A stretch of DNA of 64,000 nt, taken from the NCBI GenBank assembly GCA_964439995.1, contig CAYTQD010000002.1:1567-65566 (forward strand), given 5' to 3'. The DNA comes from an uncultured Nitrososphaeraceae archaeon. Its GTDB lineage: Archaea > Thermoproteota > Nitrososphaeria > Nitrososphaerales > Nitrososphaeraceae. The translations under genes and the position numbers were made by a program. A model generated the notes under the pieces. It worked only from the letters and a program-made list of their open reading frames with translations, ran no database searches and was not told the DNA's origin. Below, piece by piece: positions 31,526-40,422 of the stretch. How positions within the stretch are numbered: the first letter of the stretch is position 1; each line of letters starts with the position of its first letter.

Positions 31526-34500
31526 TCATGCCAAGCTTCTATAAGGTTTCAAGTAATCTACGGTAGGTTGAGATGAGGTGAGCCACTCAAGTGTCTTTAG
31601 AAATGAGGATGCTCCTTCTATGGTAGTCAAAACAGGAACTCCCAATTCAACTGCCTTTCTCCTTATCAAGTACTCATCATAAAGCATTCCTACGTATTTT
31701 TCCATTGTAGACGTCGCGGGAATGTTAATTATGAAGTCAATTTTGCGTTCAAAAAGCAGGTCAGTAATGTTAGGTTTTCTGTCAGGCTCACTTATCTTAT
31801 AGACTTTCTTTACCGGTTTAACAAGGCTAGATTCTAGGAATTCAGCAGTATGCTCAGTTGCGCTAATACTAAACCCTAATGATGAAATAAGTGAAATTAG
31901 AGGCCTAATTCTGAGTTTATTTTTCTGTCCTCCAATACTGATTAGGGCAGAACCTGATAGGGGAAGCGAATAGCCTGCTGCCAGATAGGCCTTAGAAAGG
32001 GCATCATAAAAACTATTGCCAAAGCAGGCTACCTCTCCAGTAGATTGCATTTCTACTCCGAGGACAATGTCCGCACCCTCTAACTGCATAAAAGAAAACT
32101 GGGGGACTTTTATTCCAAAGGCTGTCGTCTTAAGCCATAAATCCCTAGCGGAATCGGGAAGACTTTTGCCCAACATAGCTCTTGCGGAAAGGCCTATTAA
32201 GTTTGCTTCAATAAACTTTGAAACAAACGGCATAGATCTGGATGCTCTCACATTGGCCTCGATAACAAATACTTCCTCATTTTTGACCAGATATTGAATG
32301 TTGTATGGGCCTAGAATATTTAGGGCGGTTCCTATTTTTGCTGAATATTCTTTAATAGTCTCCAAGGTTTTTCTGTCCTGCTTCCAAGGTGGGATACACA
32401 TTATCGCGTCACCAGAGTGAATTCCAGCATTGTCTATGTGTTCAATAATCGATCCAACAATGACACCATCCTTTCCTGATACTGCATCTACCTCCACCTC
32501 AGCAGCTTCCTGGATGAATTTACTTATCACAATCGGGTATTGAGGGCTGATACTCGTTGCAGTTCTCAAGTACTGCTCTAATTGATCCTTTCCCCAAATC
32601 ACCTTCATTGCCGCTCCACTGAGGACATACGAAGGCCTGACCATAACCGGGTATCCTACACCTTCCGAGAATTTCTCTGCCTCTCTTACATCAGAAAATC
32701 TTTTCCAAGCTGGCTGTCTTATATTAAGTGTATCTAGAAGTTTTCCAAATTTTGCACGGTCTTCGGCACTATCAACGTCTTCGCTCCTGGTCCCTACTAT
32801 TTTGACTTTCGTGCTAGCCAGTTTGGGAGTGAGATTATTTGCAGTCTGTCCCCCCACACATGTAACTATTCCATAAGCCTTCTCTCTTTCATATATATCG
32901 AGCACTCGTTCAAAGGTTAACTCTTCGAAATAGAGCCGGTCTGAAATGTCATAGTCGGTTGAAACGGTTTCTGGATTACAATTAATTACAGATACATTGT
33001 CGATCCCATTTTCTTTAAGACTCCATACCATGTTGACGGTTGCCCAATCGAATTCTACACTGCTCCCGATCCTATATGGGCCAGCTCCTACAACAATTAT
33101 GCTCTTCTCCTCCTTTTCGAATTCAATATCGTCACCATCACCGTTGTAGGTCATATAGAGGTAGTTAGTCTTGGCGGGCCACTCAGCAGCAAGCGTGTCT
33201 ATCTGTTTGACCACCGGTCTTATTCCAAATTTGTCTCTTAAGCTTCTCACCTGGTTCTCATCAATATTCATACATTCGGCGATTTGTTTATCGGAGAAAC
33301 CATTTTTTTTGGCCTCGATAATTAGCGATTCATCGAATCTTGTGGTGCGAAGACGATTTTCTATTTTTATGATATGATTAATACAAAATAAGAACCACGG
33401 GTCAATATGGGATAGCTGGCTTACTCTAGAAACGGTGACTCCAGCCTTTAACGCCCTAAAAACTGTAAACATTATACCGTCATTTGGCTGAAGGAGAGAT
33501 TGCTCGATTTTTTCTATATCCTCAGGGGAGTATGTTTCATTAATTTCGTCAGTAGATGTAAGTCCGTTACTTTCTATATCGCACATTCGAATTGCTTTCT
33601 GTATTACCTCTTCAAAATTTCTTCCTATGGCCATTACCTCCCCTACCGATTTCATTGTACTGCCTAGCCTGCGTTTAACATTCTCAAATTTTTGAAAATC
33701 CCAACGAGGCATCTTCAAAGTAATATAATCAAGAGAGGGTTCAAAGCAGGCAGTGGTTATTTTAGTTATTCTATTAACGAGCTCTGGAAGTGAGTACCCA
33801 AGACCAATCTTTGCTGCCATGTATGCTAGCGGGTAACCAGTAGCTTTACTAGCCAAAGCAGAAGATCTGGACAGTCTAGCGTTGATTTCAATAGCACAGT
33901 ATTGATCGGAAGAGGGTTCTAACCCGAACTGAATATTGCATTCCCCAACTATATCACAATGCGCGGTAGCCCTCTGGGCTGCAGAGCGAAGCATTTGATA
34001 CTCAGTATTGTTGAGAGTTTGAGACGGAGTTACTACAATATTGTCACCCGTATGGACTTGCATCGCAAGCACGTTTTCCATATTACAAATCACCACATTG
34101 TTTCCACGACTGTCACGCATCAACTCGTATTCGATCTGCTTCCAGTTTCCGACATATTTTTCAATTAATACCTGATGTACAACACTTAGTGACAATCCAC
34201 GCTGTACAATCTCCTCTAATTCGTACTCGTTGTGAGCTAAGCCGCTGCCTTTTCCGCCGAGTGTGTAGGCGACACGAATCATGACTGGAAAACCTATTTC
34301 CTTAGCTGTCTTCCTAGCCTCGGATGTAGAATACGCCGGAGAACTGGGCAAGACAGGAACACTACTCCTCTGCATAGCATCCTTGAATAGTCGCCTATCC
34401 TCTGTAATTCTGATCCCGTTGATTTGTGTACCTAAAACTTTTATTCCGTATTTATCTAGTATACCTTGACTCTCTAAGGACACTCCACAGTTGAGAGCGG

Positions 34501-34802
34501 TCTGTCCTCCAAAACTTAGCATTATAGAATCCGGTCTCTCTTTTTCTATGACTTTTTGTACATATGATAGGTTCACTGGTAGCAGGTACACCCTATCAGC
34601 AAATCTGCTGTCAGTTTGGATTGTGGCTATATTGGGGTTTATTAATACGCTTCTGACGTCATCCTCCCTCAGAGCTTTGAGGCACTGTGAACCAGAGTAG
34701 TCGAATTGGCGGTCAGTTCTAGTGACTTTCGCCCGCTTCTCCGATTTTAATAGCGCCGCTCCCGATAACGAGGACCTTTTTTATGGATTCATGTTTGGGC
34801 AA
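31526..34802 (-). CDS. carB: Carbamoyl-phosphate synthase large subunit, two exons: join(34802..34728, 34705..31526), 1084 aa after splicing
   Basis: Exon 1: TTG start with GGAGG SD, MPKHESIKKVLVIGSGAIKIGEAGE. Exon 2: FDYSGSQCLKAL..NPNIATIQTD, two ATP-grasp domains and MGS domain. Confidence 0.95.
34706..34727 (-). other. Candidate 22-nt bulge-helix-bulge mRNA intron in carB
   Basis: mRNA GGCG-AA^A-GUCA-CUAGAAC-UGAC-CGCC-AA^UUC; removal gives GGC GAA UUC GAC (GEFD). Confidence 0.85.
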
Positions 34803-35970
34803 TTTTTCCTCCGTTCTTTGATCTAGGTTTTTTTATAGTCTCACTGCTGATCTCAATTAATTCTCTAAACTTATCAAACACAAATTCACAGTCATACGGA
34901 CCTGGAGAAGCCTCAGGATGAAATTGAACCGCAAGAATTGGCTTCTTCTCATGCTGTATTCCTTCTACTGAAGTATCATCAATATTTGAAAACCAAGTTC
35001 TAAATCCGGTCCCCTTTAAGCTCTCAGGATTAATTCCATAACCGTGGTTCTGCGTTGTGATATAAGTTTGTCCACTATTCAAGTCTTTACACGGTTTGTT
35101 CTGTGCCCTATGTCCAAATTTCAATTTGAAGGTGTTTGCACCGGCAGCCAGGGCTAGTATCTGATTTCCAAGACATATGCCCAGCGTGGGAGTAGAGGTA
35201 TCAATTAACTTGGCTGCAGTCTTGATTGTCTCTACGCAATAGGTAGGATTCCCCGGACCATTGCTTATCACAACACCTGCAGGACTATATTTCATGATCT
35301 GCTCGAAAGTCGAATCCCAGGGAAGTATTACAGCGCTGTAACCGGCATTTAATACGTTCCGGATTATGCTATATTTGGTACCCGTATCTAGAATCACAAT
35401 ACAACGATCCACTGCAGCCCTGTAATGACGTGCACCAGGCACTGAGACCTCTTCCATAAAATTTCTTCCCTCATAATTTTCGTTATCAATAAGTTGTAGT
35501 AGTATTGATTCGTCTGTTATACGATTCTTAGAGACAGACAAGGCCCCCATCATCACTCCTCTGACTCTCAATTTCTTCGTAAGTTCTCTTGTGTCAATTC
35601 CATACATTCCAGGAATTCTCTCCTCATATAACCACTGGTCCAATGTTTTGATGCAGGCCCAGTGACTAGCTACACTTGACAAATTATTAATCAACATGCC
35701 TTTGGCTTGGATCTTGTCAGATTCAAAGTATTTTGGAAGACCATGGGAATCCTGTATTTTCTTGCTAGGAACCCCGTAATTTCCAATTAACGGATAGGTC
35801 ATACAGATGATCTGGCCCCTATAGGACGGATCAGATAACGTTTCTATATATCCAACCATGCCCGTATTGAAGACCACTTCACCCGCGGTATCCCGAGGAT
35901 ATCCGAACCCAATGCCTGAAAAAGAACTACCGTCGTCAAGCAATAGTCTCGCTTTGTAGCCACTATACAA
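34789..35970 (-). CDS. carA: Carbamoyl-phosphate synthase small subunit
   Basis: GEVVFNTGMVGY, DPSY, SNGPG, GICLG, QNHG and QFHPE motifs. Confidence 0.97.
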   Translation of the reverse strand: MYSGYKARLLLDDGSSFSGIGFGYPRDTAGEVVFNTGMVGYIETLSDPSYRGQIICMTYPLIGNYGVPSKKIQDSHGLPKYFESDKIQAKGMLINNLSSVASHWACIKTLDQWLYEERIPGMYGIDTRELTKKLRVRGVMMGALSVSKNRITDESILLQLIDNENYEGRNFMEEVSVPGARHYRAAVDRCIVILDTGTKYSIIRNVLNAGYSAVILPWDSTFEQIMKYSPAGVVISNGPGNPTYCVETIKTAAKLIDTSTPTLGICLGNQILALAAGANTFKLKFGHRAQNKPCKDLNSGQTYITTQNHGYGINPESLKGTGFRTWFSNIDDTSVEGIQHEKKPILAVQFHPEASPGPYDCEFVFDKFRELIEISSETIKKPRSKNGGKIAQT

Positions 35971-36063
35971 TTTTTCTAATGTCGGAATTTTAAACCCTAA
36001 AAAATTATCTGTCGATGGAAATTTAAGTGTTACACCCTACATTTTGGGATGTATGTTCAGACA

Positions 36064-36555
36064 TCACTTTAACCAATCAGCAGGTATATTTTGATACACC
36101 CCATTTGGTAAAACTCTTCTAATTGAAATCGGTAGAGCCTTGGCATCTAATTCCATACAAGCCAGGGTCACAGAATCTTTAGCTTGACCAAGGATTTCGA
36201 CCAATGCAGGTGCACCTAAGGACAGCTGCAACGACCTTGCCCCTGTTATCCTTGCTCTTTCAAATCTAGTAAGAAAGGGGGGTCCTACTAAAACTTGCTT
36301 ACCGCTAGGAACTATTTCTCTGACCCGGAAATCAATTTCGTCGTATGTGACAACTTCGTCCTGCAGTCTAGGCGTCTTTTCTTCTTCCATCTTAGCAGGG
36401 CTACTGGATGCTTTTTTGAAACCAGCTCTGCTCTTGTTCAAGGTGACTTTCTTGGCAGGTTTTGGTTTGTATTGTGTGGCTTTCTTGGCAGGTTTTGGTT
36501 TGTATTGTGTGGACTTCTTGTGGGAACTAGTACTACTTGAAGATTTTACTACCAA
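36064..36555 (-). CDS. rpo6: RNA polymerase subunit Rpo6 (K) with basic N-terminal extension (start 36555 or 36561)
   Basis: LTRFERARI.GAR.LQL..GAP and LPISIRR motifs. Confidence 0.93.
   Translation of the reverse strand: MVVKSSSSTSSHKKSTQYKPKPAKKATQYKPKPAKKVTLNKSRAGFKKASSSPAKMEEEKTPRLQDEVVTYDEIDFRVREIVPSGKQVLVGPPFLTRFERARITGARSLQLSLGAPALVEILGQAKDSVTLACMELDAKALPISIRRVLPNGVYQNIPADWLK
36447..36512. repeat. Perfect 33-bp tandem duplication in rpo6
   Basis: ctttcttggcaggttttggtttgtattgtgtgg occurs twice; encodes TQYKPKPAKK twice. Confidence 0.95.
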
Positions 36556-39534: not shown

Positions 39535-40422
39535 GTGTGCCTTGATAAGGTAGACCAAATAATTACTGGAAATTGCAAGAGGGTTCTATTATGTATTCCT
39601 GCCGACTCTATCCAGTTAACTATAACTTCACCTCCGTACAGAAATGCCATAGATTATGATTTGCATGTATTGGGTAAAGGGCAATATTATCGTGGGAAAA
39701 CCAAAATCGGCACTGCAGCATATTTGGAAGAAATGTCTGAAATTTTCAATAATCACATATATAGAGCAACTAAGAAAGGGGGCTATTGTTGTATTGTAAT
39801 CGGCAACGAAGTAGTAAATGGTACCATTCTACCGTTGCCGCATATGTTACTGTCAAAAATTGTGCAACCCATGGGTAACTGGTACCTACATGAGGAAATT
39901 ATCTGGCACAAAGTTACTGGTGGAACTAATAGGTACGGCTCGTTTGTCATCAATCCTTATCCAAAATATTATAGAGCAAATATCATGCACGAATTTGTAC
40001 TGGTGCTGAGGAAAGGTGACGTAACCAGCGGAAGGACAAATAAAAGTGAAATGTTACCTGCCACTCACGAGGAGTGGACGAAAGAAATAGCAAATTCTGT
40101 ATGGCATGTACCCCCGGTTCCCCCCGGATATATTGATCACCCATGTCCGTTCCCTGAAGAAATCCCTTATCGTCTAATGAAGTTATATTCTTATGAAAAT
40201 GATACTATACTAGATCCATTTAACGGAAGTGGACAAACCACTAAAGTCGCCTTTCATTTTCGTCGGCACTATATCGGCATTGAAGTAATGGAACGCTACA
40301 ATAGATTAGCTTTATGTAGGCTTGCAAAAGAGAAGGTTCACATAAGACCTGAGGCATTAATTGCAAAGTGGAAAAAAATCCCGTCTCATTACGTATATAA
40401 AAACTCAAACCTAGGTGCTTGA
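39535..40422 (+). CDS. Orphan beta-class N4-C/N6-A DNA methyltransferase
   Basis: TSPPY (motif IV) precedes HPCPFP and DPFNGSGQT (motif I). Confidence 0.92.
   Translation: MCLDKVDQIITGNCKRVLLCIPADSIQLTITSPPYRNAIDYDLHVLGKGQYYRGKTKIGTAAYLEEMSEIFNNHIYRATKKGGYCCIVIGNEVVNGTILPLPHMLLSKIVQPMGNWYLHEEIIWHKVTGGTNRYGSFVINPYPKYYRANIMHEFVLVLRKGDVTSGRTNKSEMLPATHEEWTKEIANSVWHVPPVPPGYIDHPCPFPEEIPYRLMKLYSYENDTILDPFNGSGQTTKVAFHFRRHYIGIEVMERYNRLALCRLAKEKVHIRPEALIAKWKKIPSHYVYKNSNLGA

Follow-up and report, generated by a model that had tools for sequence, protein, structure and literature searches.

Among archaeal coding sequences, the one bulge-helix-bulge (BHB) intron that is named in the literature searched is that of cbf5 in Crenarchaeota (PMC2738675; PMC7714728), and a further BHB intron is known from the 5′ untranslated region of an mRNA, HVO_1309 of Haloferax volcanii (PMC7714728). 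Protein-coding BHB introns have so far been treated as a curiosity of cbf5 in hyperthermophilic Crenarchaeota, reviews and articles dating up to 2025 mention no case beyond it and the 5′ untranslated one, and the reference list of a 2025 paper cites cbf5 work alone for introns of this kind. Here we describe a candidate counterpart in carB, which encodes the large subunit of carbamoyl-phosphate synthase, on a 64,000-nt stretch of DNA (herein referred to as the window; contig CAYTQD010000002.1, positions 1,567 to 65,566 of the forward strand, assembly GCA_964439995.1) from an uncultured Nitrososphaeraceae archaeon. We assign a probability of about 0.88 to the reading that 22 nt at 34727–34706 of the window, on the minus strand, are a BHB intron in the carAB mRNA that is removed by splicing. 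If so, carB would hold the second coding-sequence BHB intron after that of cbf5, in a new host gene and a new lineage, with the mechanism of tRNA and cbf5 introns and a relaxed 3′ bulge. A preliminary description of this DNA, made from the sequence and its open reading frames, had held that archaeal mRNA introns are well established mainly for crenarchaeal cbf5 and knew of none in carB or in metabolic genes of ammonia-oxidising archaea. This view matches the literature searched: we found no description of a BHB intron in carB or another carbamoyl gene of ammonia-oxidising archaea in the searchable literature, subscription-only papers lying outside the search.

The cbf5 introns (Watanabe 2002; Yoshinari 2006; Yokobori 2009, PMC2738675) resemble the carB insert in being BHB-type elements within coding sequence whose motif is often relaxed, in occurring in hosts with a heteromeric splicing endonuclease (EndA) and in having a patchy distribution with gains and losses. 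They differ in that cbf5 encodes an RNA-modification enzyme of Crenarchaeota whereas carB encodes a core metabolic enzyme of mesophilic ammonia oxidisers; unlike the cbf5 introns, those of carB span only 17–52 nt and lie 25 codons into the gene, and whereas cbf5 splicing has been shown experimentally, that of carB is predicted here from sequence. With archaeal tRNA introns (canonical or relaxed BHB motifs, hBHBh′ and HBh′) the carB element has in common a central helix of 4 bp, a bulge of 3 nt, cleavage 2 nt downstream of that helix, a size within the range of short tRNA introns and presumed processing by EndA and the ligase RtcB; unlike them, it sits in an mRNA, has an enlarged 3′ bulge and takes its outer helix from coding exons with constrained synonymous sites. 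In eukaryotes, the HAC1 and XBP1 mRNAs are spliced under stress regulation by Ire1 together with tRNA ligase or RtcB, the latter being the metazoan ligase. As in carB, this is non-spliceosomal cutting and ligation at paired stem-loops that changes the reading frame, but the endonuclease and the motif are other ones and there is no sign of regulation for carB. The HVO_1309 intron is likewise removed from an mRNA by the archaeal splicing endonuclease, but it lies in an untranslated leader and leaves the frame unbroken (PMC7714728), whereas the carB frame is broken by its insert, so that splicing would be obligatory for the protein.

The carB gene of the window falls into two pieces on the minus strand. 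Exon 1 (34728–34802) consists of 25 codons, a TTG start and 24 more, which translate as (M)PKHESIKKVLVIGSGAIKIGEAGE and end in GEAGE, and exon 2 (31526–34705) begins with FDYSGSQCLK and stays open for 1059 codons plus the stop. The 22 nt between them (34706–34727, minus strand; AGUCACUAGAACUGACCGCCAA) contain an in-frame TAG: read onward, the exon-1 frame enters the insert as Ser-His-stop, that is, it terminates at TAG after 27 codons, and no CarB would therefore be made from an unspliced mRNA. Skipping the 22 nt gives a single 1084-aa CarB frame with the predicted junction peptide IGEAGEFDYSGSQCLK. These elements had been placed correctly in the preliminary description (the TTG at 34802 with its GGAGG, the GEAGE end, the 22 extra nucleotides and the exon beginning FDYSGSQ were all found there by direct reading), and the intact 1084-aa protein that it foresaw after excision is borne out by comparison with an intronless, full-length CarB (P0130). 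The joined 82-residue N-terminus (P0002) aligns with the first 82 residues of P0130 without gaps and at 78% identity, exon 1 being gaplessly colinear with its N-terminus, and both proteins are 1084 aa long. The ribosome-binding site GGAGG (34808–34812, minus strand) stands 5 nt upstream of the TTG, and the same GGAGG-N5-TTG arrangement recurs at same-genus carB loci. Upstream, carB is adjoined in the same operon by carA, the small subunit (34789–35970, minus strand, coordinates from the open reading frame list; Pfam CPSase_sm_chain and GATase), with a 14-nt overlap at the carB TTG start.

An interrupted frame of this kind might also mean that the hairpin is solely a regulatory or processing site, at which the RNA is cut without religation or translation is blocked, with carB being non-functional or working as separate pieces. 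EndA does handle substrates other than introns, such as rRNA precursors, and removes a 5′ untranslated intron in Haloferax (PMC7714728). We consider this highly unlikely for carB, however, as a genome search found only one gene for a large-subunit carbamoyl-phosphate synthase, exon 2 offers neither a start codon nor a ribosome-binding site upstream of residue 39 and would alone miss the conserved glycine-rich N-terminus, and in hundreds of genomes both exons have been kept whole and align colinearly with intronless CarB.

The unconstrained minimum-energy fold of 34760–34680 (RNAfold, with 200 shuffles as control) has −27.1 kcal/mol (z = −2.57), with 0/200 shuffles equally stable, and reproduces the BHB element that had been proposed. 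In this fold, which lies on the minus strand throughout, an 8-bp outer helix between the exons pairs AAUCGGAG (34739–34746) with CUCUGGUU (34690–34697), both strands being recovered in the consensus structure described below as well; the central helix joins GGCG within exon 1 (34730–34733) to CGCC within the intron (34708–34711), the latter also in the alignment consensus; the 5′ bulge AAA occupies 34727–34729; the inner hairpin GUCA-CUAGAAC-UGAC, comprising helix h′ and its loop, 34712–34726; and the 3′ bulge AAU 34705–34707, with AAUU unpaired in the fold. Short AG/CU and CG/CG pairings accompany the outer and central helices. The geometry is that of a 4-bp central helix with a 3-nt 5′ bulge, and the cuts predicted between 34728 and 34727 and between 34706 and 34705, each 2 nt downstream of the helix on its strand, would give GGC GAA|UUC GAC. 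The outer helix had been said to close the structure: its pairing is present, but it does not abut the central helix, because the 3′ bulge is relaxed. A search of 34500–35000 against Rfam, at E values up to 1, matched no family. Group I and group II introns possess a ribozyme core of hundreds of nucleotides, and a self-splicing intron of either group was rejected given that the introns measure just 17–52 nt and match no Rfam family.

The insert is widely shared among relatives. Of 40 relatives searched at the DNA level, 37 proved to have carB, and 29 of 30 fetched loci have an insert of 17–32 nt at the identical codon boundary (the lists of these loci, like the 49-sequence set of intron-bearing genes used below, include the unpublished genomes L008 (G009) and L009 (G004), and no conclusion depends on them). 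In a pattern search of the order, 342 of 401 genomes matched and most have the insert; among the 150 records listed, inserts occur in families f10, f13 and f14, each of which has intronless records too, and the records of f7, f9, f12 and f18 are all intronless. When a no-gap pattern was searched in 238 genomes of the window's own family, the intronless junction appeared in 8, all of genus g14, and in 0 of the 10 genomes of the window's genus. Overall, an insert of 17–52 nt stands at the exact codon boundary in most of the Nitrososphaeraceae and Nitrosopumilaceae genomes searched. Named records with the insert are Ca. Nitrososphaera maunauluensis, Nitrosopolaris, Nitrosocosmicus, TH1177, TH1920, Nitrosotalea, Nitrosotenuis, Nitrosarchaeum, Ca. 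Nitrosopumilus salarius BD31, Nitrosopumilus sp. b1 and a Cenarchaeum genome, and named records lacking it are Ca. Nitrososphaera sp. FF02, Ca. Nitrosopumilus limneticus, some Nitrosopelagicus and Ca. Nitrosocaldus schleperae, together with all Bathyarchaeia, Jordarchaeia and Nezhaarchaeales among the records listed. The simplest reading of these records would be a single gain in the ancestor of both ammonia-oxidiser families followed by repeated precise losses.

This distribution bears directly on whether the insert could be an assembly or sequencing artefact, or the mark of a recent pseudogene. The host genome is indeed a metagenome-derived assembly of 100 contigs and 87% completeness, and four public DNA runs gave no contig across 34438–34709, which spans the insert, a result that in itself speaks neither for nor against the intron. 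We nevertheless give an artefact or recent pseudogene next to no credence: hundreds of assemblies made independently, among them complete genomes in a single contig, have a same-site insert, it covaries, and the 1059 codons of exon 2 are intact.

The statistics that follow are for 86 different sequences with the intron; genomes G004 and G009, which are unpublished, were kept out of this set and of the covariation alignment. The inserts, again of 17–52 nt, fall into all three length classes modulo 3 (38 with remainder 0, 30 with 1 and 18 with 2). The 5′ bulge is always 3 nt long and reads AAA, AGA or AAU in 86/86, the 3′ triplet is AAU, AGU or AUU in 85/86, the central helix is of 4 pairs in 72 sequences and of 3 in the other 14, and the inner helix, of 3–11 bp, begins at the second intron base without exception (86/86). 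The RNAalifold consensus of 47 sequences (alignment A1) is a BHB in which 97.2% of cells are paired, and two-sided changes fall in 77 cells as against 25 in shuffles, a count reached by none of 500 shuffles; sliding the structure by 1–3 columns lowers the paired cells to 20–51%. Four of the five aligned pairs of the inner helix are compensatory, with changes on both sides, and the central helix has one compensatory pair, CG to UA, which matches a change of the exon Gly codon from GGC to GGU (GGUG/CACY variants occur); a candidate pair beside the central helix, between the third positions of the Ala and Phe codons, does not covary consistently. The aligned carB 5′ ends have a same-position insert with covarying BHB pairs, which the preliminary description had named as a check, and what is conserved in the insert, judging from these alignments, is RNA shape and base pairing rather than a peptide.

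The same inserts allow us to weigh whether ribosomes translate around the 22 nt, either by a programmed +1 frameshift, which would here produce GE-VTRTDRQ-FDYSG, or by bypassing the hairpin. The exon-2 frame does remain open through the insert in this window, and a stable hairpin right after the Glu codon could in principle stall ribosomes. Across the homologous inserts, however, a stop interrupts the exon-2 frame in 54/86, among them 11 of the 30 inserts for which a +1 shift would otherwise suffice, base pairing is kept instead of peptide sequence, no matching take-off and landing codons are present, and contigs exist that lack exactly the insert (see below). Given inserts of every length class modulo 3, most of them with stops, the +1 frameshift, which the preliminary description had itself named as an alternative, is ruled out, and only a very slim chance is left for translation around the insert in any form. 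In the exon-1 frame, 76/86 inserts contain a stop, and in the 49-sequence set an in-frame stop is present in every insert with a length divisible by 3 (20/20). The hairpin loop itself very often provides UAA or UAG in the exon-1 frame; these loop stops may have been selected to end translation of unspliced mRNA, or they may merely reflect A-rich loops.

The exons flanking the insert also appear to be constrained. At third codon positions within the predicted exon helices (those of Ile, Gly, Glu and Gly upstream of the joint and of Asp and Tyr downstream), the majority base has a frequency of 0.90–0.98 in genes with the intron as against 0.33–0.62 in those without (21 genes from several families), and six or more of the 8 pairs of the outer helix are present in 47/49 intron-bearing as against 8/21 intronless genes; relatedness inflates both contrasts, though the genes with the intron come from at least eight family-level groups. 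Synonymous exon sites are thus far less variable in the sampled intron-bearing genes, a clean example of RNA structure shaping coding sequence.

Public assemblies further contain contigs in which the exons are already joined. A protein search with the virtually spliced N-terminus retrieved P0003, encoded on Logan contig SRR29193635_78562 (L034), which aligns with an intron-bearing genome of the same genus (G008) over 1613 nt with 37 mismatches (97.7% identity) and one gap of exactly 22 nt, and 22 JGI contigs emerged from a scan for the joint with flanks of the intron type. Seven joint-bearing contigs lack exactly the intron and have intron-bearing lineages as their nearest relatives. Besides L034, these are L166, 98.4% identical to G016 without the 27-nt intron of the latter; L179, 91.6% identical to a Nitrososphaeraceae genome without its 26-nt intron and with a complete 1098-aa frame; L169 and L175 (both Ga0126318) and L036 (Ga0126317, as L179), all Nitrososphaeraceae-like; and L037, 85% identical to G011 without its 32-nt intron. 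They represent at least five Nitrososphaeraceae-like lineages, and their joint is exactly the one that had been predicted for carB of this window, GGC GAA UUC GAC. In the pairs G016/L166, L095/L179 and G008/L034, provided that contig strain and reference genome share their bulge sequences, the observed joint is reproduced only if both strands are cut behind their second bulge nucleotide, at the canonical EndA positions. For four of the contigs the nearest genome belongs to the coded genera g1, g3, g8 and g15, in which there is no intronless genome among those searched, and g14, the sole intronless genus of the family search, is unrelated to the joint-bearing contigs. As judged from their sequences, cDNA would fit these contigs better than five independent precise losses from DNA. 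Among joint-bearing full-length proteins none is closer than 72% to the CarB of the window, and the nearest come from intronless lineages.

The genome also encodes the enzymes that such splicing would call for. EndA is present as two paralogues (198 and 215 aa), both of which have the two Pfam domains above the cut-offs; the first is closest to the catalytic subunits of the heteromeric enzymes of Aeropyrum, Sulfolobus and Pyrobaculum (E 1e-36 to 1e-40), and the second is more distant, with matches that include the Pyrobaculum structural subunit. By sequence, the pair fits the (αβ)2 heteromeric type, and only the (αβ)2 and ε2 types are reported to cut non-canonical introns (PMC5829648). RtcB is likewise encoded, above its Pfam cut-off. 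Of 31 predicted tRNA genes, 13 have introns according to ARAGORN, some of these introns being only 12–15 nt long, so that the splicing machinery would have many substrates here, and cbf5 of the host genome is an uninterrupted 342-aa frame. A crude genome scan for mRNA introns, defined by a 4-bp helix, a 3-nt bulge, a hairpin of at least 4 bp and restoration of the reading frame, gave 908 raw hits, of which 11 passed a carB-like filter and carB alone was convincing; the scan is insensitive and further mRNA introns may exist. Three other filtered candidates were examined closely and rejected, as they read like non-coding frames. No homing endonuclease was found among 13 open reading frames scanned with Pfam at 27.6–42.1 kb, which are ordinary housekeeping genes.

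We propose that carA and carB are transcribed together and that the RNA around the codons GEAGE|FDYSG would fold into the long exon-exon helix, the 4-bp central helix, the 3-nt bulge and the intron hairpin, with the central helix pairing a strand of exon 1 with the 3′ end of the intron. Heteromeric EndA would then cut each strand 2 nt downstream of the central helix, at GGCGAA^A and CGCCAA^U, and RtcB would join the exons into GGC GAA UUC GAC and a single frame of 1084 codons. That carB mRNA is spliced in this organism we strongly infer from its sequence and those of its relatives; that EndA and RtcB are the acting enzymes we likewise infer.

Several points weigh against this reading. The joint-bearing contigs may come from DNA rather than RNA libraries; other joint contigs from the same scan, from other families and with similar flanks, are 39–376 kb long and therefore DNA of intronless lineages, which means that precise loss in DNA does happen. 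Among public sequencing runs matched to 33200–36200 there is no RNA run with this organism. The motif is a relaxed BHB, the 3′ bulge comprising the A-N-U triplet plus 1–2 more unpaired nucleotides (4–5 nt unpaired in the consensus), and its cutting by the host EndA is a prediction. The outer helix is 98.6% paired but shows just one-sided changes, and related genomes are non-independent samples. Taken with these points, the interpretation as a tRNA-type spliced intron that the preliminary description had reached is still supported by geometry, conservation, covariation, the enzyme genes and the joint-bearing contigs.

A more speculative hypothesis, which we regard as conceivable though unlikely, is that the intron is a maintained checkpoint at which the activity of the tRNA-splicing machinery gates CarB output, the exons having co-evolved to keep the substrate fold. 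Such a role would tie the supply of carbamoyl phosphate for pyrimidines and arginine to splicing, and would explain why both ammonia-oxidiser families have retained the intron and why its loop almost always contains a stop codon.

In ammonia-oxidising archaea, which are abundant worldwide, the tRNA-splicing enzymes thus seem to be needed for the expression of an essential metabolic gene. Annotation is affected as well: the JGI product P0098 reads through the carB intron in the wrong frame, and gene callers truncate or mis-start carB, so that metabolic reconstructions may score the gene as broken. Cultured strains with the intron (such as Ca. Nitrosopumilus salarius BD31) and without it (such as Ca. 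Nitrosopumilus limneticus) provide natural controls for the purpose of archaeal mRNA introns.

Individual carB records deviate from the common pattern. In two metagenome-assembled genomes of Nitrososphaerales/Nitrososphaeraceae (L081 and L085) the intron, upstream of position 400, is 52 nt long, more than twice the usual 20–22 nt, and has a long AT-rich hairpin extension. A 2.5-kb contig labelled Heimdallarchaeota (L106, JALUTL010000388.1) bears a Nitrosopumilaceae-type carB with an intron identical to that of a Nitrosarchaeum metagenome-assembled genome (L108), and records labelled as a bacterium (L139) and as Ca. Acidoferrum (L142) have an archaeal-type CarB N-terminus; all three are probably mis-binned contigs. 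Three in-frame stops within the first 600 nt of carB exon 2 in L005 (G006), carA called as three pieces and carB as four in L035 (ENA ERZ28548099, a pilon contig) and a 1-nt indel in L166 look like long-read or assembly errors and not additional introns. In L036 (Ga0126317_10116664), at about position 1420, carB has an in-frame TAG (VPVL*SSSAY) where the window has Pro (VPVLPSS), which may be a sequencing error or something else.

Elsewhere in the window, a DNA methylase gene (Pfam N6_N4_Mtase; 39535–40422, plus strand) lies amid archaeal shikimate-pathway genes, with a DeoC-type aldolase and DHQ synthase II upstream and dehydroquinase and shikimate dehydrogenase downstream.
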